From the NCBI RefSeq assembly GCF_056712565.1, contig NZ_CM160072.1: a DNA stretch of 64,000 nucleotides. One strand, 5' to 3'. Below the pieces are notes generated by a model, which worked only from the letters and a program-made list of their open reading frames with translations, was not told the origin of the DNA and ran no database searches. A program made the translations under genes and the position numbers. Shown here in pieces: positions 35,655 to 57,998 of this stretch. Position 1 is the first letter of the stretch. The number at the start of each line of letters is the position of its first letter.

Positions 35655-35881
35655 TGGCTGATGCAATGGATCTCGTACAGCAGCGCGTTGAAGAAGAACG
35701 CCAGCGTCATATCCGTGCTGCCCGTGCCAAAACGCCGGGCGTGTCCCGCGTGCTTTGCATTGAGTGTGAAGCGCCAATTCCGCCAGCACGCCGCCGTGCC
35801 ATTCCAGGTGTGCAGCTTTGCATTACCTGTCAGGAAATCGCAGAGCTGAAAGGCAAACATTACAACGGAGGTGCTGTATGA
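35654..35881 (+). CDS. TraR/DksA-family C4 zinc-finger protein
   Basis: 75 aa; CIECEAPIP...CITCQ (CxxC-N17-CxxC). Confidence 0.7.
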   Translation: MADAMDLVQQRVEEERQRHIRAARAKTPGVSRVLCIECEAPIPPARRRAIPGVQLCITCQEIAELKGKHYNGGAV

Positions 35882-36735
35882 GCACCATCCTGAAATGGGC
35901 GGGAAATAAAACCGCCATTATGTCCGAACTGAAAAAGCATCTTCCTGCTGGCCCGCGACTGGTTGAACCTTTCGCGGGTTCCTGTGCAGTGATGATGGAG
36001 ACGGAGTACCCCAGCTATCTTGTTGCGGATATTAATCCTGATTTAATCAACCTCTATAAAAAGGTTGCTGCTGATTGTGAATCGTTTATATCTCGCGCCA
36101 GAGTTTTATTTGAGATCGCAAACAGGGAGGTGGCTTATTACAACATAAGGAAGGAGTTTAATTACTCAACTGAAATTACTGATTTCATGAAAGCGGTATA
36201 TTTCCTGTATCTCAATCGTCACGGTTACCGTGGTTTATGTCGCTATAACAAGAGCGGGCATTTCAACATTCCCTACGGCAATTATAAAAATCCGTATTTC
36301 CCTGAAAAAGAAATTCGCGCATTTGCAGAAAAAGCCCAGCGAGCAACGTTTATCTGCGCCAGCTTTGATGAAACGCTGGCGATGTTGAAGGCGGGGGATG
36401 TGGTGTATTGCGATCCACCGTATGACGGTACGTTTTCCGGCTATCACACTGACGGCTTCACTGAAGATGACCAGTATCACCTGGCATCTGTTCTTGAACA
36501 TCGGTCATCAGAAGGACATCCGGTCATTGTTTCTAACAGTGACACATCCCTGATCCGTTCGCTGTATCGCAATTTTACTCACCACTATATCAAGGTAAAA
36601 CGCATCATCGGTGTGGCAGCTGGCGAGGGTAAATCAGCAACAGAAATCATTGCTGTTTCCGGGCCGCGCTGCTGGGTGGGATTTGATTATTCGCGTGGCG
36701 TGGATAGTTCTGCCGTGTACGGAGTACGTGCATGA
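35878..36735 (+). CDS. Dam-like DNA adenine methyltransferase (orphan)
   Basis: 285 aa; LKWAGNK N-terminus, FAGS AdoMet motif, DPPY catalytic motif; start overlaps the TraR-like stop (ATGA). Confidence 0.9.
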
Positions 36736-39146
36736 GCCATGCCGATATGAACAACTGCTGCGGCTTTAACGAGGCTGCCGCAGCGTTCTCATGGAACAGC
36801 CCGAAAAAGGCCATTAACCCTTATCTGGACCCGGCGGAAGTTGCGCCGGTTTCTGCGCTTTCAAACCTGATCACTCTGTACGCTGCCGATAACGAGCAGG
36901 AACAGTTGCGCCGCGAGGCACTGAGTGATCAGGTCTGGGAGCGTTATTTTTTTAATGAATCACGTGATCCTGTCCAGCACGAAATGGAGCAGGATAAGCT
37001 CATTAGCCGGGCAAAGCTGGCGCATGAGCAGCAGCGTTTTAATCCGGATATGGTCATTCTGGCGGACGTCAACGCCCAGCCTTCCCATATCAGCAAGCCG
37101 CTGATGCAACGTATTGAATACTTCAGCAGCCTGGGCAGGCCAAAGGCTTATTCCCGCTATTTACGTGAGACGATTAAGCCATGTCTGGAACGACTGGAGC
37201 ATGTACGCGACAGCCAGCTATCTGCATCTTTTCGTTTTATGGCAAGCCATGTAGGGCTGGACGGCCTGCTGATTCTGCCTGAAATGAGTCAGGATCAGGT
37301 GAAACGCCTGTCTACCCTTGTCGCTGCGCATATGAGCATGTGCCTTGATGCAGCTTGTGGTGATTTGTATGCCACCGATGACGTTAAGCCAGAAGAAATC
37401 CGCAAGACATGGGAAAAGGTGGCAGCGGAAACCCTGCGTCTGGATGTCATCCCGCCTGCGTTTGAGCAACTCCGTCGGAAAAGAAACCGCCGTAAACCCG
37501 TGCCCTATGAACTCATTCCGGGTTCGCTGGCGCGTATGTTGTGCGCCGACTGGTGGTACCGGAAATTATGGAAAATGCGTTGCGAATGGCGGGAAGAGCA
37601 GTTGCGTGCTGTCTGCCTGGTCAGCAAAAAAGCATCTCCCTATGTCAGCTATGAAGCCGTGATGCATAAACGTGAGCAGCGCCGCAAGTCACTGGAGTTT
37701 TTCCGTTCTCATGAACTGGTGAACGAAGAGGGCGACACGCTGGATATGGAAGACGTGGTAAACGCCAGCAGCAGCAACCCGGCGCACCGCCGCAATGAGA
37801 TGATGGCCTGTGTTAAAGGTCTGGAGCTTATCGCGGAAATGCGCGGTGACTGCGCCGTTTTCTACACCATTACCTGTCCGTCACGTTTCCATTCCACGCT
37901 CAATAACGGCAGACCAAACCCAACCTGGACAAATGCGACGGTAAGACAAAGCAGCGATTATCTGGTCGGCATGTTTGCTGCATTTCGTAAGGCGATGCAC
38001 AAAGCCGGGTTGCGCTGGTATGGCGTGCGGGTGGCTGAGCCGCATCATGACGGTACAGTTCACTGGCACCTGTTGTGTTTTATGCGCAAAAAAGACCGCC
38101 GCGCCATTACTGCATTGTTGCGTAAGTTTGCCATCCGTGAAGACCGCGAGGAACTGGGTAATAACACTGGTCCACGCTTTAAATCTGAGCTGATAAACCC
38201 GCGCAAAGGAACGCCGACAAGCTACATCGCGAAATACATCAGTAAGAACATTGACGGGCGTGGTCTGGCTGGCGAGATCAGCAAGGAAACGGGTAAATCC
38301 CTGCGTGATAACGCTGAATACGTTAATGCCTGGGCGTCTCTGCATCGTGTTCAGCAATTCCGCTTCTTTGGTATTCCAGGGCGTCAGGCTTACCGTGAAC
38401 TGCGGTTGTTGGCTGGTCAGGCGGCAAGGCAGCAGGGTGACAAAAAAGCAGGTGCGCCGGTACTGGATAACCCGCGCCTTGATGCCATCCTGGCTGCTGC
38501 TGATGCTGGCTGTTTTGCCACCTACATTATGAGGCAGGGCGGCGTGCTGGTTCCTCGCAAATATCACTTGATCAGAACCGCTTATGAAATCAATGAAGAG
38601 CCGACCGCCTATGGCGATCACGGTATTCGTATTTATGGCATCTGGTCACCCATTGCAGAAGGCAAGATCTGCACTCATGCAGTGAAGTGGAAAATGGTTC
38701 GTAAAGCCGTTGACGTTCAGGAGGCGGCAGCCGACCAGGGCGCTTGCGCCCCTTGGACTCGTGGCAATAACTGTCCCCTTGCTGAAAATTTGAACCAACA
38801 AGGGAAAGACAAATCAGCTGATGGGGATACCAGGACGGACATTACCCGCATGGATGACAAGGAGTTGCACGATTACCTGCACAGTATGAGCAAAAAAGAG
38901 CGCCGGGAACTGGCTGCAAGGTTACGCCTGGTGAAACCGAAACGGCGTAAAGACTACAAACAGCGAATTATAGACCATCAGCGACAGCAGCTCGTCTATG
39001 AACTGAAGTCCAGAGGATTTAATGGCAGCGAGAAAGAGGTCGATTTACTCCTTCGCGGCGGCAGTATTCCGTCAGGAGCAGGCCTGCGTATCTTCTATCG
39101 GAACCAGCGTTTGCAGGAAGATGATAAGTGGCGAAACCTGTATTAA
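36732..39146 (+). CDS. A: replication initiation endonuclease (P2 gpA / 186 A family)
   Basis: 804 aa; HWHLLCF motif and tyrosine-rich active region (YIAKYISK). Confidence 0.88.
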
Positions 39147-39238
39147 TTACGCGGGTTAACAATTCGTGCTCTTAATAATACCAGGCATATCAGGCTAATG
39201 AACGTAAAAAAACGTTTTACATCAGTAAGATTATTATA

Positions 39239-39258
39239 TACTGTAAATATAAACAGTG
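39239..39258 (+). promoter_or_regulatory. LexA box (SOS operator)
   Basis: TACTGTAAATATAAACAGTG matches CTGT-N8-ACAG; 40 bp upstream of a small ORF plus dinI-like gene. Confidence 0.6.
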
Positions 39259-39299
39259 GTTATGTATACAGTATTGCTTGTGGTGTCATAGGAGGAAAG

Positions 39300-39488
39300 A
39301 TGCAGGACTATTTTTTGGAGTCTTTGAAGCTCCAGCGCATTGATTTTTTTCTTAAGCTTGTAGCGGCTAGTGAGTGTAGTGATGAAGAGAAGGGGCTGGC
39401 TTTGCAGTGGGTTTCTGAACTGACAGATGAACTCATGGCAAAAATCAGAACCCACGAATACAACCGCTCAATGGATGTCATCAGCTGA
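39300..39488 (+). CDS. small SOS-operon protein (possible Tum-like antirepressor fragment)
   Basis: 62 aa; GGAGG RBS; directly downstream of the LexA box and upstream of the dinI-like gene. Confidence 0.4.
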   Translation: MQDYFLESLKLQRIDFFLKLVAASECSDEEKGLALQWVSELTDELMAKIRTHEYNRSMDVIS

Positions 39489-39498
39489 GGTGACCTTT

Positions 39499-39732
39499 AT
39501 GCGCATTGAAATAATGATCGATAAAGAGCAGAAGATTAGCCAGTCTACCCTGGACGCCCTTGAATCCGAGCTTTACCGCAATCTGCGCCCCCTGTATCCC
39601 AAAACGGTAATTCGCATCCGCAAAGGTAGCTCTAACGGTGTGGAACTGACCGGACTGCAACTGGACGAAGAAAGAAAACAAGTGATGAAGATTATGCAGA
39701 AGGTGTGGGAAGACGACAGCTGGCTGCATTAA
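39499..39732 (+). CDS. DinI-family protein
   Basis: 77 aa; MRIEIMIDKEQ...VWEDDSWLH resembles DinI (MRIEVTI...); GAGGTGA RBS. Confidence 0.75.
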   Translation: MRIEIMIDKEQKISQSTLDALESELYRNLRPLYPKTVIRIRKGSSNGVELTGLQLDEERKQVMKIMQKVWEDDSWLH

Positions 39733-39891
39733 GAAAAGTTGCTGGCGTCTGAACTTGGTTCTGGCGTCAGCAAGGTTGAACAACGAGTACAGTGAGGCGT
39801 TAGGTGTGGCGTTTATTTGATGAGTGAACGCCCGTTCTGCGATAGGTTCGGAGATTAAGGTTGAAACTACGGGCAAAATACCATCTTTTTC

Positions 39892-40317
39892 CTACTTAAT
39901 TGAGTCCAGTAACAAGTTACAGTTACTCTCATTGTAGAGAGAACGAGCAATTAGTGTTACCTGCTTTCCATTCATTCCCGGCTTATCCCATAACACAGCT
40001 TCTTGCGACGCCACAAATTCAGCATAATCAATTATGCGTTGTTCGTGATCTGGTTCCTCATAGCCAAAGTATGAGAGCGCATCGTTGTAAGCGTGGTAAG
40101 CTGCTTTCTGTAATATCTTGATATCGGCTGTAGGTACTTGCTCCGTGTAGCTAGGATCTAATTGTGTGCTACTGCCATAGAATGCACATGAAAGGTAAGA
40201 TATTGATTTCTGTTGAGCTTTAGTTCCTTTCTCATAGTTTTTAGCTGTTACCGCCTGAACAGGGACGCTAACAAAGCTTGCAACCAGAATTAAAATTAAT
40301 ACGTAAAAGCTTTTCAT
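39892..40317 (-). CDS. secreted protein of unknown function (cargo)
   Basis: 141 aa; signal peptide MKSFYVLILILVASFVSVPVQA; lower-GC segment; opposite strand to flanking phage genes. Confidence 0.6.
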   Translation of the reverse strand: MKSFYVLILILVASFVSVPVQAVTAKNYEKGTKAQQKSISYLSCAFYGSSTQLDPSYTEQVPTADIKILQKAAYHAYNDALSYFGYEEPDHEQRIIDYAEFVASQEAVLWDKPGMNGKQVTLIARSLYNESNCNLLLDSIK

Positions 40318-40587
40318 TTTGACCTCAGCCGAAACGTTAGAGAGACTATCGAAATTTGTAAAACCCGTGGCGATTCAGTTTGAGATCCTCCCCCTTACAT
40401 GATTTTTAATCAAATATATGCTTTTGTAAGCATACCTGTTAACCGAATTATTTATTTTTAGAGATCTTCCGACATACTGATTATGCCCGCTGAGGAGTTC
40501 ACCTTGCGTAAAGTCCGATTCGCTTTACTCGTCTGTGCATGTCTATGCTGCATGAGATTGCATGATCGTTTGAGGATCGTTTTTGCT

Positions 40588-40617
40588 AAGGCCCGCCAGA
40601 ACTGGCGGGCTTTTGCG
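40588..40617 (+). terminator. rho-independent terminator
   Basis: GCCCGCCAG-aact-GGCGGGC followed by TTTTG. Confidence 0.5.
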
Positions 40618-40659
40618 TAGATCATGCTCCTGCATGAAAACCACTACATAAAGCGGGCA

Positions 40660-40678
40660 GGCGTGGCGGGGATACGAG
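40660..40678. other. cos-like site (P2/186-type cohesive end sequence)
   Basis: GGCGTGGCGGGGATACGAG; first 13 nt identical to the 186 cohesive end (GGCGTGGCGGGGAAAGCAT) as recalled from the literature. Confidence 0.45.
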
Positions 40679-40692
40679 CGCGCGCTTGCACC

Positions 40693-40721
40693 TTGATATT
40701 CACGGTTTGGTTAAGTATTGT
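40693..40721 (+). promoter_or_regulatory. putative sigma70 promoter for the protease operon
   Basis: TTGATA-N17-TATTGT about 40 bp upstream of the protease start. Confidence 0.3.
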
Positions 40722-40761
40722 CTTAGTCAGAGTCCATAACATATTACAGAATGGAGTTGTT

Positions 40762-41409
40762 ATGATTGGTCCTGAATATGTCGTAGTTGTTGGCGTGCTT
40801 AATGCAGGTTTGGTTAGTTTTTTAGGAACAGGTTTTTTTATTTCTAAGGATAAAATAATTACTTCCCGCCATGTTATTAATGGGTTTTCTTCTAACTTAG
40901 TTATTTCTCCATCTAATATAAATAACTTTAATAGTTATCAGGATACAAGTGTTGATAAATTTCAATGTATTGGAGTTGATGTTATTGATGAAGATCCAAT
41001 AAAAGACTTATGTGTGTTAAAAATTAAAAATGCACCTGTTTATGAACCTTGCCTAAAAATTGCTACTCTTGACGATGTTAATGTCGGTGAAGATGTGGGT
41101 ATTTTAGGTTTCCCACATTGTAATGAAAATAGAAAAGTATTGACATTTCAAACGGCAAAAATAGGTGCAAAAGTTTTACTTTCAAGCAGTAATATTCAAT
41201 CTAAACATGCCGTTATAAATATCCAAACCAGACCTGGTCAATCGGGATCGATTGTATTTAATTTAAAAAATGACTCGGTAATAGGCGTCTTGGTTGGCGC
41301 TTATGCAAATAATTCTGGAGGTTCTGTTTTGGTTGGAGGTATTAATCCAGCTGAACTACATCAGACAACTTATGCGGTTTCTGCAGAATATGTTAAGGAT
41401 ATGTTATGA
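40762..41409 (+). CDS. trypsin-like (S1/chymotrypsin-fold) serine protease, stand-alone domain
   Basis: 216 aa from MIGPEYVVVVG... (GGAG RBS); candidate triad His in GTGFFISKDKIITSRHV, Asp in DLCVLKI, Ser in RPGQSGSIVF; about 30% GC. Confidence 0.75.
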   Translation: MIGPEYVVVVGVLNAGLVSFLGTGFFISKDKIITSRHVINGFSSNLVISPSNINNFNSYQDTSVDKFQCIGVDVIDEDPIKDLCVLKIKNAPVYEPCLKIATLDDVNVGEDVGILGFPHCNENRKVLTFQTAKIGAKVLLSSSNIQSKHAVINIQTRPGQSGSIVFNLKNDSVIGVLVGAYANNSGGSVLVGGINPAELHQTTYAVSAEYVKDML

Positions 41410-41852
41410 TTGCTATACCAAATGAAGATGCTGAGTCTTGGTTGTCCACTTTAAAAACGTATCAATCTTCATCTGTCAGGAATTTTCTCGAAAATGGCGA
41501 TGAAGAAAAGGCTCTTGAGCTATGGCTAACTGCATCTGGCCCAAGTTCAGTTGCTCAATTTGGCGGTGATAATTCAAAAATGCCGGGAAGAAAAGCGTTT
41601 GTTGAGCAGTTTAAATTAGAGTTTAAGGCTTTTGTATGTGGAGGTGATAAATATGCAGAGGAGAGGGAATGTTTAGGAGCACTGACTGGTGATGTTAAAA
41701 CATACTTTGTAGGGGTGATCTCTTCGGCAATTGCGGGTTCTTTGGGGGCAACAGCAACATTTATTGCTCCAGCTGTAGTAATTATGTTGATAGCTGTCTC
41801 AAAAATGGGAATTAATGCTTGGTGTTCATTAGAGACAACGACAGAATCTTAG
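41406..41852 (+). CDS. small tail-anchored membrane protein, partner of the protease
   Basis: 148 aa; start overlaps protease stop (ATGA); C-terminal Gly/Ala-rich hydrophobic helix YFVGVISSAIAGSLGATATFIAPAVVIMLIAVS; AT-rich. Confidence 0.6.
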   Translation: MIAIPNEDAESWLSTLKTYQSSSVRNFLENGDEEKALELWLTASGPSSVAQFGGDNSKMPGRKAFVEQFKLEFKAFVCGGDKYAEERECLGALTGDVKTYFVGVISSAIAGSLGATATFIAPAVVIMLIAVSKMGINAWCSLETTTES

Positions 41853-41855
41853 GAA

Positions 41856-41880
41856 AACGCCCTTTTAGGGCGTTTTTTTA
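41856..41880 (+). terminator. rho-independent terminator after the protease operon
   Basis: AACGCCCT-ttta-AGGGCGTT followed by TTTTTTT; overlaps the portal gene stop on the other strand. Confidence 0.6.
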
Positions 41881-42906
41881 TAAATCATAATGCTGAAATC
41901 GGATAGTTTTCTCACCTAACCATTCATTAACTTCCATTATTCTTTTTTGGAGTGGAATTAGTTCATTTCTAACAAAAACCTTACTCGCCTTCTCCACATC
42001 CCCAAACCCTCCAACATTATTAGGCATTATCCCCATCATTTGTGGCGGCACACGATGCGCCGCCATCATGTCGTCCCGGCTCACGTTCTTGATATTCAGG
42101 AACTCATCCTTCGCCGCCACTTCTGACAACGGGATAATCTGAAGCCCGTCCTTTTTACCGTTAGGCGAGTACATAAACAGGTTACGGAAGTTACCAGGAC
42201 CTTTGGCACTTTTCATCGCGTTGCGGAGATTGTTCACATCCTCCTGATTCTGCGCGGCATCGGTCATATACATGATGAAGCCTGCATGGCTGCCGTTGAT
42301 GTAATACTTGCGGCGGAACAGCGTGGCGGACTTATTGAGCAGGGCTGACGGAATGGCAGAAAGATAGCCGGGCAGGCCGTAGATCTCCTGGTTGATGTCC
42401 GGTTCCATCAGATGAAAAATGCTGCCTTTCGTGAACTGATACGGCTGGGTTGTCATACCGTATTGCACAAACCAGTAGGTATCCAGGTCTAACCCGCGTC
42501 GGGTGTATTTTGCCAGCGCAGGATCAAGGGCGATAACTTCACCGAATCGGTTCGTGCGTTTCTCCAGGTAGGCGTTACCAAATACCAGATAGTCCTGCAC
42601 AAAACGCGAAAAAGCCTGCTGGCTGAGCAGCGGATGAGGGATATAGGTACTGGTCAGAATGTTGCACTTTACTGCAATCGGAGAACTGTGATGCACGGCG
42701 GCGCGGAAGGTGCGCGCCAGTCCGTCAAAGCTGACGGGCGGCTCATACCAGCGATCTGTCTGTACGCATTCCACATAGTCCAGCAGTTCACGGCGGTCCA
42801 GAACAGGAACGGGATCACCGAAGCTGAATGCTTCGGCTGAAGTCTGGCTTTTATGCTGGAGCTGGTTCGTCGACGCAGCGCGGTTCTTCTTACTCTTTCC
42901 CATCAA
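41878..42906 (-). CDS. Q: portal protein (P2 gpQ-like)
   Basis: 342 aa; size and position (upstream terminase on the same strand) match P2 Q. Confidence 0.88.
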   Translation of the reverse strand: MMGKSKKNRAASTNQLQHKSQTSAEAFSFGDPVPVLDRRELLDYVECVQTDRWYEPPVSFDGLARTFRAAVHHSSPIAVKCNILTSTYIPHPLLSQQAFSRFVQDYLVFGNAYLEKRTNRFGEVIALDPALAKYTRRGLDLDTYWFVQYGMTTQPYQFTKGSIFHLMEPDINQEIYGLPGYLSAIPSALLNKSATLFRRKYYINGSHAGFIMYMTDAAQNQEDVNNLRNAMKSAKGPGNFRNLFMYSPNGKKDGLQIIPLSEVAAKDEFLNIKNVSRDDMMAAHRVPPQMMGIMPNNVGGFGDVEKASKVFVRNELIPLQKRIMEVNEWLGEKTIRFQHYDL

Positions 42907-44582
42907 AAAATCTCCACAATATTACTGGTATTGGCGGACTCGCCCTGCAGTGGTTCGTTAAACAGTGCGTGCATTGTTGCCCAGGCCAGATCGGCGTGGC
43001 TGGCTTCTTCGCTGCGGCTGGCTTCATAGGTCGGGCGGTTGCCGCTGGCGGTGGTTGCGCGACGGATTGCCATGAATGACTGCGCAATGTCGGTGTGTCC
43101 GGCGTCAAACTCCAGACGGCGGTGGCTGATAATGTCGTAGGCCTTGAGTACCAGGGCGTTTTTAACGTTGGGGTTGTAGACAAACTCCCGGACGGCAGGA
43201 AAGAACGCTTTCACGTTCTCATAAACCCCGTGACCGACACCTGTCGAGTCGATGCCGATATATGTCACGTTGTACTGTTCGGTCAGTTTTTTGATGGCGT
43301 CCGCCTGGGCGCGGAAGTCCATCCCGCGCCACTGGTGACGCTCAAGAATACGGAACTTACCGCCCGGCACGGCTGGCGGAGCCACCACCACGCATCCGGC
43401 ACTGTCGCCGTTCTGCGTACCTTTTGCCGGGTCATAACCGATCCACACTTCGCGCCAGCCAAACGGGCGCAGCGCCAGTGCATGAAAGTCGGTCCAGACT
43501 TCCCAGCTGTCCACCATGCACGCCTGCAATTCGCTGAGCGGGAACACAGATGCGAGATCGTCAACGAACTCGCACATCAGCAGGTTCTGGTATTCGTCCG
43601 GGCTGTACTCCATGCGCAACTGGTCGAGGTCGAACAGGTTACAGCCGCCGCGTACCGCATCTTCCACGGTGACTATCTGGCGGTATTGCCCGTCTGCGCA
43701 CAGCAGGCCGGGGGCCAGATTGCTGTGGGACAGGTCGATGTCCACCTTATCGGCTTTGTTGCGCCCACGGTTGAACAACGCGCCGGACCAGAACGGATAA
43801 GCACTGTGGGTCAGGCTGGATGGCGTGGAAAAATAGGTCTGTCGCCATTTCTTGTGAATAGCCATACCGGAAGCCACTTTGCGCAGCTCCTGAAATTTTG
43901 GTATCCAGAAATATTCATCCAGATACAGGTTGCCGTGATAACTCTGGGCCGTGCGGGCATTGGTGCCTAGGAAGTAAAGCGTGGCCCCGTTAGGAAGCAC
44001 CATCGGATCGCCTTTCAGCTCCACCTCCACTTCTTTGGCGAAGTCGATGATGTACTGCTTAAAGACGTGGGCCTGTGCCTTACTGGCGGAAAGGAAAATC
44101 TGGTTACGCCCGGTAAGCAGAGCGTCAATCAGGGCTTCACGGGCAAAGTAAAAGGTTGCGCCGATCTGGCGTGACTTCAGCAGGTTGCGGATGCGGTTGT
44201 TTTTTCCGGCTTCCCACCAGTGGCGCTGGTAGTTGAACATGGAGGAATGGAAGATTTCTTCCAGCTTCTCAATCTGTTCATCGGTGAAAACGTTCTTTTC
44301 CGGCTGACGGCGCGGGCCTTTGTTGCGGTTGGCGACGTTAGGGTTTAAGTCGGCTTCGTTGCCGCCATTGTTAAACTTGCCGATCCGCGCATGGCGCTCC
44401 GACTGGCGCGCCAGCAGGTCAATCTCTTTGAAATCTTTCCCTTCTTTGTGCTCCTTCATAATGAGCTGGCAGTAGCGTGCGGCGGTGGTGAGCTGCATCT
44501 GATCCAGCGGCCCATAGTCACCCCACTTGTCGCGTTTTTTCCAGCTGTTCCAGTAAGTTTTTTCTAACGGAGCACGGCTCAT
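42903..44582 (-). CDS. P: terminase large subunit (P2 gpP-like)
   Basis: About 559 aa (ORF could extend to 44630 or start later); Walker-type ATPase plus nuclease; overlaps the portal start. Confidence 0.88.
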   Translation of the reverse strand: MSRAPLEKTYWNSWKKRDKWGDYGPLDQMQLTTAARYCQLIMKEHKEGKDFKEIDLLARQSERHARIGKFNNGGNEADLNPNVANRNKGPRRQPEKNVFTDEQIEKLEEIFHSSMFNYQRHWWEAGKNNRIRNLLKSRQIGATFYFAREALIDALLTGRNQIFLSASKAQAHVFKQYIIDFAKEVEVELKGDPMVLPNGATLYFLGTNARTAQSYHGNLYLDEYFWIPKFQELRKVASGMAIHKKWRQTYFSTPSSLTHSAYPFWSGALFNRGRNKADKVDIDLSHSNLAPGLLCADGQYRQIVTVEDAVRGGCNLFDLDQLRMEYSPDEYQNLLMCEFVDDLASVFPLSELQACMVDSWEVWTDFHALALRPFGWREVWIGYDPAKGTQNGDSAGCVVVAPPAVPGGKFRILERHQWRGMDFRAQADAIKKLTEQYNVTYIGIDSTGVGHGVYENVKAFFPAVREFVYNPNVKNALVLKAYDIISHRRLEFDAGHTDIAQSFMAIRRATTASGNRPTYEASRSEEASHADLAWATMHALFNEPLQGESANTSNIVEIF

Positions 44583-45930
44583 GACAGTGAAAGCAAAGCG
44601 TTTTCGCATCGGGGTGGAAGGTGCCACCACCGACGGACGCGAAATCCAGCGTGAATGGCTGGAACAGATGGCAGCCAGCTACAACCCGGCGGTGTATACC
44701 GCGCTGATTAACCTTGAGCACATCAAGTCTTATATACCGGACAGCACCTTTAACCGCTACGGCAAGGTGACGGCGCTGTTTGCTGAAGAAATCACGGAAG
44801 GTCCGCTGGCAGGCAAGATGGCGCTGTATGCCGACGTTGAGCCAACGGAGTCCCTGGTGGAACTGGTGAAAAAAGGCCAGAAATTATTCACCTCTATGGA
44901 AGTCAGCCCGAAGTTCGCTGATACGGGCAAAGCCTACCTGGTCGGCCTGGCTGCCACTGATGACCCTGCCAGTCTGGGTACGGAAATGCTGACATTCAGC
45001 GCCAGTGCAGCCCATAACCCGCTGGCAAACCGCAAGCAGAATCCTGCCATGACTGAGCAGTCCGGTCAGCTGCTGGGGCTGGGTGTTGGCAGCACCATTG
45101 CCGGAACCACTGACACCACCGCAAAAGAGCGTGAACCTGTCGATCCGACGCTGATGGTCGATGTGGAATATAAATGCGAGCAGACCAACTTTGACACGGT
45201 GCTGACCTACGCGAAGCTGGACCTGTGGGCGAAGTTTCAGGATTTCCAGGTGCGTATCCGTGACGCCATCGTGAAACGTCAGGCACTGGACCGCATCATG
45301 ATCGGCTTTAACGGCGTGAAGCGTGCGAAAACCTCCAACCGTAGTGAAAACCCGCTGCTGCAGGATGTGAACAAAGGCTGGCTGCAGAAAATCCGTGAGG
45401 ATGCACCGGATCACGTCATGGGCAGCACCACCACGGGCGGCGAAACCACACCGGGTGCGGTGAAAGTCGGTAAAGGGGGCGAATATGCCAACTTGGACGC
45501 TGTGGTGATGGATGCGGTCAATGAGCTTATCGACGTGGTCTACCAGGACGATGACGATCTGGTGGTGATTTGCGGTCGTGAACTGCTGTCTGACAAGTAT
45601 TTCCCGCTGGTCAACAAAGAGCAGGAAAACAGTGAAAAATTGGCAGCCGATATGATTATCAGTCAGAAACGCATGGGCGGTCTGCAGGCCGTGCGTGCGC
45701 CGTTCTTCCCGCCGAATGCGCTGCTGATCACCCGTCTGGATAACCTGTCCATCTACTGGCAGGAAGACACCCGCCGCCGTTCAGTTATCGACAACCCGAA
45801 ACGTGACCGGATTGAAAACTTTGAATCCGTTAACGAAGCCTATGTGGTTGAGGACTACCGCTGCGCCGCACTGGTGGAAAACATCCAGATTGGTGATTTC
45901 AGCGCCGCCGCAGCCGAAACCGGAGCGTAA
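44581..45930 (+). CDS. scaffold/protease (gpO-like N-terminus) fused in frame to major capsid (gpN-like) C-terminal region
   Basis: 449 aa; N-terminus FRIGVEGATTDGR...TSMEVSPKFADTGKAYLVGLAATDDPASLGTE resembles gpO; C-terminus YKCEQTNFD...LDLWAKFQDFQVRIRDAI...GFNGVKRA resembles gpN; interval is about 0.65 kb shorter than the O+N pair in P2. Confidence 0.65.
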   Translation: MTVKAKRFRIGVEGATTDGREIQREWLEQMAASYNPAVYTALINLEHIKSYIPDSTFNRYGKVTALFAEEITEGPLAGKMALYADVEPTESLVELVKKGQKLFTSMEVSPKFADTGKAYLVGLAATDDPASLGTEMLTFSASAAHNPLANRKQNPAMTEQSGQLLGLGVGSTIAGTTDTTAKEREPVDPTLMVDVEYKCEQTNFDTVLTYAKLDLWAKFQDFQVRIRDAIVKRQALDRIMIGFNGVKRAKTSNRSENPLLQDVNKGWLQKIREDAPDHVMGSTTTGGETTPGAVKVGKGGEYANLDAVVMDAVNELIDVVYQDDDDLVVICGRELLSDKYFPLVNKEQENSEKLAADMIISQKRMGGLQAVRAPFFPPNALLITRLDNLSIYWQEDTRRRSVIDNPKRDRIENFESVNEAYVVEDYRCAALVENIQIGDFSAAAAETGA

Positions 45931-57404: not shown

Positions 57405-57431
57405 CCCCGGTTTTTATTCAAGGAGATGATC

Positions 57432-57998
57432 ATGCTTATTGGCTATGTACGCGTGTCAACAAATGACCAGAACACCGATTTGCAACGTAGTGCGCTGAAC
57501 TGCGCGGGATGTGAGCGGATTTTTGAGGACAAAATCAGTGGCACTAAGTCCGACAGACCGGGGCTTAAAAAACTGCTCAGGACACTATCGGCAGGTGACA
57601 CACTGGTTGTCTGGAAGCTGGACAGGTTGGGGCGCAGTATGCGGCATCTTGTTACGCTGATAGAAGAGTTGCGCCAGCGCGGCGTGAATTTCCGAAGTCT
57701 GACTGACAGTATTGATACCAGTACCCCAATGGGCAGTTTCTTTTTTCATGTCATGGGTGCCCTGGCTGAAATGGAACGCGAACTGATAGTTGAACGTACC
57801 AGGGCAGGGCTGGCTGCAGCTCGTGCTAAAGGCAGAGTAGGTGGACGCCGTCCTAAGTTGACTACCGAACAGTGGGCACAGATTGGGCGTTTACTCGAGG
57901 CCGGAGAATCAAGACAGCGTATTGCACTGATTTTTGATGTAGGCGTTTCTACCATTTATAGAAAATTTCCGGCAAATAAGAGCAATGAATCTCCCTGA
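57432..57998 (+). CDS. serine recombinase, Hin/Gin/Pin-type DNA invertase
   Basis: About 188 aa; MLIGYVRVSTNDQNTDLQ with catalytic Ser, resolvase domain plus C-terminal HTH (VSTIYRKF). Confidence 0.9.
   Translation: MLIGYVRVSTNDQNTDLQRSALNCAGCERIFEDKISGTKSDRPGLKKLLRTLSAGDTLVVWKLDRLGRSMRHLVTLIEELRQRGVNFRSLTDSIDTSTPMGSFFFHVMGALAEMERELIVERTRAGLAAARAKGRVGGRRPKLTTEQWAQIGRLLEAGESRQRIALIFDVGVSTIYRKFPANKSNESP

Follow-up and report, generated by a model that had tools for sequence, protein, structure and literature searches.

What is a stable hairpin followed by a cohesive-end-like sequence doing in DNA that lacks a gene? The window, as we call the whole 64-kb stretch of DNA analyzed here, contains a non-coding region (40318–40761) between a leftward gene for a 141-amino-acid protein and a rightward S1-peptidase gene, and the first-pass annotation of this region hesitated between the end of a phage genome with a packaging recognition region and a small terminated RNA. 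Our comparisons give a confident answer: positions 40536–40685 are very probably the cos site of a Fels-2/186-like prophage of the P2 family (Peduoviridae) residing in an Escherichia coli chromosome. The genome-end reading is upheld, since the sequence shows homology to cos ends that have been established by experiment in P2, 186, and P4 and is the same as the cos annotated in phage SEN8, whereas the RNA reading finds no support (see below). Cleavage at 40660/40678 is placed by homology, because the SEN8 site is itself annotated only as “putative.”

The window is E. coli chromosomal DNA essentially identical to that of strains SF-468 and MS15052 and of APEC O1:K1:H7 isolates, and P2-like prophages with this region are found in about one-quarter of complete E. 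coli genomes. The early side of the prophage comprises, in order, genes for an integrase, CI repressor, cII, fil, a Dam methylase, gpA (36732–39146), and a DinI-like protein. There follow the left cargo gene, the non-coding region, 2 right cargo genes, the leftward portal and terminase large-subunit genes, the scaffold and capsid genes (O/N), the gene for gpM, the head completion gene (L), and the lysis and tail genes. The cos site is positioned between replication gene A with the non-essential region and the leftward portal–terminase operon, as in P2 and 186. At the junction between the right cargo and the portal stop codon lies a bidirectional terminator-like hairpin corresponding to tQ of P2 and tW of 186, which are annotated at the same place in those genomes. 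A promoter-like site was also observed at 40693–40721, ahead of the PDC-M35 genes.

The predicted cohesive end, GGCGTGGCGGGGATACGAG, occurs once in the 64-kb window. The resemblance to P2 and 186 that had been remarked upon at first sight proved genuine: the 19-mer shares 15 of its 19 positions with 186, 14 with P2, and all 19 with the annotated cos of SEN8, and it fits the P2-family cohesive-end type GGCG(A/T)GGCGGGGA.... SEN8 is a Salmonella phage isolated as particles, and its record opens with precisely this 19-mer, which carries the annotation of a putative cos; the paper describing the genome likewise gives the sequence as the cos site (PMC5427200). Staggered nicks are predicted at both borders of the 19-mer, which would leave 5′ overhangs.

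The records of P2, 186, and P4 begin and end at their cohesive ends, and we compared the joined ends with the window. This comparison with the cos regions of P2, 186, and their relatives, which the first-pass annotation had proposed as a check, returned the same order of elements in all 4 sequences, P4 included: TGCATGAGATTGCAT-type repeats about 100 to 125 bp left of the cut come first, followed by a TGCA/TGCAT pair at about −30, AAAACC, AAGCGGGC(A/G), the 19-mer, and (T/C)GCGCGC. The motif AAAACC...AAGCGGGCA, which forms the left core, is also found in P2, 186, and P4. A cos core of about 55 bp common to P2 and P4 was described by Ziermann and Calendar (1990), as cited in PMC5694545 and PMC9594776, and the conserved P2/P4 cos core, together with cargo hotspots on both sides of cos, is treated in PMC9122126, PMC5694545, and PMC9594776. 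The 19-mer, the conserved core (with one deviation, the T at 40628), the distal TGCATG-bearing flank, and the genomic location, which are hallmarks of a P2-family cos site, are present in the window.

The extent of the site was delineated in 2 ways. In a BLAST comparison with about 50,000 phage records, the match was confined to 40535–40687 (82% to 97% identity), with hits to Fels-2, RE2010, E. coli phages, and many Klebsiella P2-like phages. When IMG/VR was scanned with a sequence pattern, 120 loci were retrieved; after the addition of P2, 186, and P4, 118 distinct homologous regions could be aligned. In these 118 regions, conservation begins at the first TGCATG (40536) and stops past GCGCGC (40685), with unrelated sequence outside. 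Within the block, the core columns (TGCAnnTGCAT, AAAACC, AAGCGGGC, the 19-mer, and GCGCGC) are at least 90% conserved in the alignment with P2, 186, P4, and 114 other sequences, the invariance of the 18 bases at 40655–40672 being by construction, as these were set by the search pattern. On the right, the sequence diverges straight after CGCGCGC, and among 26 contexts in which the left cargo gene recurs, nearly all lose their similarity to the window at about 40686. Because homology breaks at the block edges, the 150-bp block has exchangeable DNA on both sides. The packaging recognition region proposed earlier is thus borne out for 40536–40659 and 40679–40685, whereas its left part, 40400–40535, is cargo DNA. 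A hotspot between cos and the portal gene of P2-like phages is noted in PMC5694545, citing Dodd and Egan 1996 and Nakayama et al. 1999. The coordinates of the cos elements and of the surrounding genes are collected in Table 1.

Table 1. Elements of the cos site and neighboring features in the window (offsets in base pairs relative to the cut).
Feature	Positions	Strand	Remarks
Left cargo gene, 141-aa protein, phrog_7437	39892–40317	−	Function not assigned
Promoter-like site TTAACA-18-TATATT of the leftward cargo gene	40413–40442	−	10/12 matches; overlaps the palindrome
Whole conserved cos region	40536–40685	+	−125 to +26 from the first cohesive-end base
Three distal TGCATG repeats	40536–40541, 40549–40554, 40559–40564	+	Columns at least 90% conserved
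GC-rich dyad/hairpin with TTTT	40588–40614	+	“Orphan terminator” of the first-pass annotation
Proximal repeat pair ATGCT-cc-TGCATG	40624–40636	+	Consensus ATGCAnnTGCAT; palindrome centered at −30.5
Left core AAAACC...AAGCGGGCA	40637–40659	+	Near-invariant columns (118-region alignment), partly by construction: last 5 bases imposed by the search pattern
19-nt cohesive end (cosN) GGCGTGGCGGGGATACGAG	40660–40678	+	Matches in 186, P2, and SEN8
Right core border CGCGCGC	40679–40685	+	(T/C)GCGCGC at least 90% conserved
Right cargo, candidate defense system PDC-M35A (S1/trypsin-like peptidase)	40762–41409	+	
Right cargo, candidate defense system PDC-M35B	41406–41852	+	Two-gene system with PDC-M35A
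Bidirectional terminator-like hairpin ACGCCC-ttta-GGGCGT	41857–41879	.	A-run/T-run flanks; cargo/portal-stop junction
Portal gene	41878–42903	−	
Terminase large-subunit gene	42903–44548	−	5′ end cut by a 231-bp deletion
Terminase small (endonuclease) subunit gene, gpM	45934–46584	+	Pfam Phage_term_smal; presumed reader of the cos flank

The flank left of the cut carries TGCAT repeats. TGCAT(G) occurs at 40536, 40549, 40559, and 40631; these 4 copies fall within 105 bp, where chance would give 0.09 (Poisson P of about 3e-6), and no other such cluster exists in the 64-kb window. The 3 distal repeats are common to P2, 186, and P4 and, by analogy with cosB of phage lambda, are candidate binding sites of the terminase small subunit gpM. 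The proximal pair, closer to the cut, forms the TGCA palindrome that is the strongest palindromic center of the family. Within this pair, the window carries a T at 40628, where an A is near-invariant (at least 90%) among relatives.

The short repeats and the palindrome to which attention had been drawn are both real, but only the repeats belong to the cos site. The palindrome, TATGCTTTTGTAAGCATA (40417–40434), spans 18 bp with 7-bp arms and a 4-nt spacer, lies outside the cos block, and is close to chance expectation, with an estimated 0.2 to 0.4 such 7-bp palindromes per 480 bp. We considered it as a conserved operator and rejected this candidate: in the one diverged homologue, L157, whose cargo protein is 91% identical, 3 of the 7 pairs are broken and uncompensated. 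In the other relatives with the cargo gene, conservation of the palindrome is uninformative, because nearly all of them are 98% to 100% identical. The segment 40400–40535 falls outside the conserved cos and travels with the left cargo gene, whose promoter-like site it contains; in the consensus scan that picked out this site, the total of promoter-like hits in the region was no higher than in shuffled sequences. In P2, the old/tin promoter occupies an equivalent place, about 150 bp left of cos.

How the site would work can be outlined from related systems. Following what has been established in P2, 186, and P4, and by analogy with lambda cosB/cosN, gpM would read the repeat-bearing left flank. 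Once the phage DNA has replicated as circles, a complex of gpP and gpM would introduce staggered nicks at both borders of the 19-mer, and each head would receive a linear genome of unit length that ends in 19-nt 5′ overhangs. The gpM of the window has 95% to 99% identity with that of phages sharing this cos type and about 48% with the P2/Wphi/PSP3 type, a sharp gap separating the 2 groups; cos type tracks terminase type, as would fit a gpM that reads lineage-specific parts of the flank. The hairpin is the central dyad of the flank and, because in the lineage of the window it is shaped like a rightward intrinsic terminator, may keep transcription of the cargo region from reaching cosN and the genes on its far side. 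The 150-bp block is bordered by exchangeable cargo, here phrog_7437 to its left and PDC-M35 to its right, as befits the known hotspot next to cos in P2-like phages.

The prophage copy in the window shows deletions. Relative to MS15052, 231 bp are missing at 44548/44549, so that the first approximately 40 codons of the terminase large subunit (gpP) are gone; of the 142 bp that separate P from O, the place of P2-type late promoters, the same deletion takes away 110. A further 554 bp are missing at about 45049/45050, resulting in an in-frame O–N scaffold–capsid fusion (ORF 44581–45930). The gene for gpM is intact and that for gpP truncated, whereas both are intact in sibling strains. With deletions in terminase, scaffold, and capsid genes, the prophage probably cannot use its cos site by itself. 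Provided that the deletions are real, neither heads nor full-length terminase can be made, and cos would be usable only with a helper. We accordingly lean, with some reserve, toward regarding the site in this copy as an inactive relic within a defective prophage, left uncut unless a related helper supplies terminase and heads. Besides the 2 losses, the T at the near-invariant repeat position 40628 points in this direction, as does the absence of the deletion junctions, which were found in 0 of 5,426 complete E. coli genomes. The deletions could, however, be assembly errors. Apart from the T, the 150-bp block is intact, and it does not differ from the block of sibling strains whose head genes are undamaged; it could still serve a Fels-2-type phage that is co-resident or superinfects the cell.

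The part of the cos flank that calls for most discussion is the GC-rich dyad. Its arms, GCCCGCCAG (40591–40599) and CTGGCGGGC (40602–40610), are separated by an AA spacer and followed by TTTT (40611–40614), and outer pairs extend the hairpin to its full span, bringing the GC stem of 8 to 9 bp to 11 pairs. As RNA, it folds at −27.9 kcal/mol, compared with −12.5 ± 2.8 kcal/mol for shuffled sequences (z = −5.6; 0 of 200 shuffles as good). The hairpin and T-run of the first-pass annotation are present, the T-run amounting to TTTT only, and it is also correct that no plus-strand gene lies close upstream: the DinI-like gene ends at 39732, 856 bp away. The label “orphan,” by contrast, does not fit, as the hairpin is a position-fixed component of the flank common to most P2-family cos sites. 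Its center lies exactly at −59.5 from the cut in 69 of the 89 sequences with at least 6 uninterrupted pairs, and it is the second most palindromic center of the family, behind the TGCA palindrome at −30.5.

The arms of the dyad covary across lineages. Over a 10-pair helix in 120 rows, 76% of cells are paired, as against 67% in column shuffles (0 of 500 reach the observed value) and only 27% to 45% in controls with a slid register. The inner core of the dyad, CCA...GG.G, is at least 90% conserved, and the outer arms covary freely. Within the 10-pair helix, pair 106–126 is G-C 48 times and C-G 35 times, and pair 109–124 is C-G 44 times and G-C 24 times. The ATACGAG cos type, to which the window belongs (46 distinct sequences), has on average 7.2 of 9 Watson–Crick pairs and a T-run in 87% to 91% of sequences, whereas other well-sampled cos types have a shorter dyad and a T-run in 0% to 28% (at most 43% by a looser count). 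The dyad is short and bulged in 186 and takes the form of a different 8-bp stem in P4, in both cases without a T-run, and it is absent from P2. Around the dyad there is a larger symmetry, with GCATGATC (40560–40567) facing GATCATGC (40620–40627) and 28-nt arms that are 71% complementary.

Two readings of the dyad, which are not mutually exclusive, deserve to be weighed, and each of them we hold only tentatively. The first is that the dyad acts at the level of DNA, as a symmetric protein-binding site, as a bend, or as a spacer prone to cruciform formation that separates the 2 groups of TGCAT repeats, with the T-run being incidental; this we consider quite possible, if short of probable. It would account for the center being fixed at −59.5 across cos types, including P4, for the conservation of CCA...GG.G beyond what a terminator stem needs, and for the nesting of the dyad within the larger symmetry. 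The P2-family terminase acts on closed circular DNA, in which cruciform-type structures can form. Mismatches in the stem also lack the strand bias expected of a structured transcript: G.U and A.C mismatches are equally frequent (58 versus 57 overall and 12 versus 9 within the cos type of the window), so there is no sign of selection on a plus-strand RNA. However, the cos of P2, the functional site that serves as the reference, is fully functional without a dyad, and P4, which is packaged by the P2 terminase, has another stem sequence; because both are packaged nonetheless, the dyad is not an essential sequence-specific contact, at least for the P2 terminase. The free covariation of the outer arms, likewise, fits a structure but not base-specific contacts.

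The second reading adds a transcriptional role to the cos function, with the hairpin serving as a working Rho-independent terminator on the plus strand inside the cos flank, a proposal that is conceivable but that we regard with some doubt. Such a terminator might stop read-through from the early/SOS operon and the left cargo, and perhaps also spare cosN, the right cargo, and the portal–terminase operon (in antisense) from transcription, both of these consequences being as tentative as the proposal itself. A very stable GC stem with TTTT next to it is what this reading calls for, and the T-run is kept in most of the 46 ATACGAG-type sequences even though the bases beyond it vary, but conservation within one lineage could equally reflect shared ancestry, and the T-run is missing from 186, P4, and most other types. 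Terminator-shaped forms with other stem sequences do occur in other cos types (L038, L115, L122, L046, and L069), and in 186 the annotated terminator t95b lies just left of the cos flank; termination before cos is therefore a recognized need. Nevertheless, the T-tract TTTTGCGT holds 4 T only, and the hairpin was not called by a consensus terminator scan with a criterion of at least 5 T in 8. Nor is there a co-oriented transcription unit adjoining it, as a convergent gene stands between the hairpin and the nearest plus-strand gene, and the equal frequency of G.U and A.C changes speaks against it. The terminator-shaped form was not associated with the strand of the left neighbor by crude ORF calling (19 plus and 9 minus with the form, 38 plus and 12 minus without it).

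A broader proposition, which we think rather unlikely as a whole, is that the dyad, with its fixed distance of −59.5 from the cut, is a selected structural module of Peduoviridae cos sites that is new to characterization. In the Fels-2 lineage it may serve as a built-in terminator that insulates the nicking site and the packaging complex from transcription out of the changing cargo hotspot, or else it may act as an extrudable hairpin or bend on the supercoiled circular DNA that is packaged. The covariation of the arms between lineages supports such a module, which P2 may have lost. If this were true, part of a packaging signal would be a dual-purpose element.

A small non-coding RNA or small protein encoded in 40400–40620 and ending at the hairpin is highly improbable. 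The hairpin with its T-run is strong, and the 226-nt stretch does fold better than shuffled sequences (z = −3.4), but no Rfam family was found at E ≤ 1 (the scan of 38000–43000 returned nothing relevant apart from an unrelated weak hit at 41322), no plus-strand promoter-like site was found in the consensus scan of 40297–40692, and conservation begins only at 40536, about 55 nt before the stem, the DNA to the left being swapped with the cargo. A literature search found no small RNA near the cos of Fels-2. As for a protein, a 45-codon ORF (40483–40620) ends just past the stem and partially matches phrog_28685, but the best explanation for the match is that genes have been called spuriously over cos in phage records. 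This ORF (45 aa on the plus strand) and another running across the site (55 aa on the minus strand) were rejected as genes, their frames being open in just 22 to 26 of 46 relatives, about half.

The site as a whole is an ordinary member of a well-described and already known class, because the identical 19-mer bears a cos annotation in SEN8 and the hotspot next to cos has been published. The gain lies in annotation: cos is placed exactly in a very common class of E. coli prophages, and cargo, including candidate defense systems, is seen to be exchanged precisely at the edges of the 150-bp block (40536–40685). This helps to define the limits of hotspot cargo and to construct cosmids or transducing particles that work with Fels-2-type helpers. 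Apart from annotation, the results confirm known biology, and the role of the dyad is the remaining point of some interest.

Among known systems, the closest counterpart is the SEN8/Fels-2 group (Felsduovirus), in which the 19-mer, ggcgtggcggggatacgag, is identical and the left flank shares the repeats, the hairpin, and the T-run. The layout is also alike, with variable genes between cos and the portal and a DinI-like gene on the left. The differences comprise a few substitutions in the flank, including the T for A at 40628, and the cargo, which differs on both sides; furthermore, SEN8 is a productive phage, whereas the copy in the window has suffered deletions in head and terminase genes.

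Phage 186 (Eganvirus) shares 15 of the 19 cohesive bases and the location of cos between the early/SOS region and the portal. Its flank contains TGCATG repeats, a GCCAG-nn-CTGGC dyad at an equal distance, TGCAnnTGCAT, AAAACC, AAGYGGGCA, the 19-mer, and GCGCGC. The 186 dyad is, however, shorter than that of the window, bulged, and devoid of a T-run, the cohesive end differs in its last 6 bases, and a separate annotated terminator, t95b, stands just left of the flank. To the differences on this side of the family we add gpM, which in P2/PSP3-type relatives is about 48% identical to that of the window.

The hairpin of the window resembles t95b of 186, tQ of P2, and tW of 186 in being a GC-rich stem-loop with a T-run at the boundary of phage transcription units. 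Unlike these terminators, it forms part of a packaging signal and keeps a fixed spacing to the cut, has a short U-tract, and is without an adjacent co-oriented gene; its role as a terminator is putative.

P2 itself matches 14 of the 19 cohesive bases, and the proximal core and distal TGCAT repeats are shared with both P2 and P4. A cargo hotspot adjoins cos in P2 as well, where it carries old and tin. The differences concern the dyad, which is missing between the repeat groups of P2 and is built from a ACCGCGCC/GGCGCGGT stem without a T-run in P4, and the spacing, as cos and Q are 187 bp apart in P2 and separated by 1.2 kb of cargo in the window.

The cos of lambda, with its cosQ–cosN–cosB arrangement, R sites, and IHF bend, provides a functional analogy only and has no sequence homology to the site described here. 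It differs in its 12-nt overhang and in the terminase families involved, and, in contrast to lambda, P2-family phages package their DNA from monomeric circles. Common to both systems is the design of the site, in which a nicking site is accompanied by an asymmetric flank whose short repeats are interrupted by a spacer, with the small terminase subunit as the presumed reader.

The left-hand cargo gene and its relatives (L130-L159) lie in every case directly to the left of this cos type, and the product (phrog_7437) is nearly invariant, with 98-100% identity among nearly all the relatives compared. The right-hand neighbors beyond position 40686 are many and different, an example of recombination taking place precisely at the edge of cos. 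The small terminase subunit of this Escherichia coli prophage shares 99% identity with that of many P2-like phages of Klebsiella pneumoniae (phage records H141-H146), and the cos block is 92-97% identical to its counterpart in Klebsiella pneumoniae P2-like phages. These identities point to the packaging module having recently passed between genera. The coordinates of the features discussed here are collected in the table.

Features of the prophage around cos and in the head and tail regions (x/y, deletion junction relative to strain MS15052)
Feature	Coordinates	Strand	Remarks
DNA adenine methylase (Dam) gene	35818-36735		The prophage's own
Left-hand cargo gene	39892-40317	-	141-aa protein, function not known (phrog_7437)
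45-codon ORF	40483-40620	+	Passes through cos repeats and hairpin; partial match to phrog_28685
Promoter-like site	40693-40721		Belongs to the PDC-M35 cassette itself
Two-gene cassette	40762-41852		Between cos and portal gene; matches PADLOC candidate defence system PDC-M35
Bidirectional terminator-like hairpin, clear	41857-41879		AAAACGCCC-tttta-GGGCGTTTTTTT; overlaps portal stop codon
Terminase large-subunit gene	42903-44548		Start removed
231-bp deletion	44548/44549		Start of the terminase large subunit lost, with most of the late-promoter region between P and O
Scaffold-capsid fusion ORF	44581-45930
554-bp deletion	about 45049/45050		In-frame scaffold(1-156)-capsid fusion
Small terminase subunit gene	45934-46584
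OLD-family gene	49966-51924	+	652 aa; AAA_15 ATPase and OLD-like TOPRIM domain
Recombinase gene	57426-57998		Adjoins the inverted segment

Within the cos block, position 40628 is T in the window and A in nearly all relatives, including almost all of those with the same left-hand cargo gene, which changes the proximal cos repeat from ATGCA to ATGCT at an alignment column conserved to at least 90%; the T is common to sibling E. coli strains. Three GATC (Dam) sites, at 40564, 40575, and 40620, are placed symmetrically about the cos dyad. Several phage records annotate a "hypothetical protein" across the cos region; considered as genes, such ORFs are probably spurious calls that have since been propagated into a protein family.

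To the right of cos, both genes of the cassette were matched by PADLOC, the A gene, encoding an S1/trypsin-like peptidase, with E = 4.5e-94 and the B gene with E = 4.3e-58. The hairpin at the portal end of this cargo is absent from the listing of the consensus terminator scan.

Compared with the near-identical sibling strain MS15052, the head and terminase genes carry two deletions. Neither junction was found in any complete E. coli genome of the collection searched, and therefore this copy is probably defective, or else the assembly is wrong.

The segment 55572-57367, which spans the 3′ portion of the tail-fibre gene together with the genes for tail-fibre assembly, lies in the opposite orientation to that in MS15052; it resembles an invertible switch of host range captured in its alternative orientation. 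Elsewhere in the tail region, the OLD-family protein, for which AriA is the best PADLOC match, is encoded between the tail-gene counterparts of P2 S and V, a site known in P2-like phages as the orf30 cargo site.
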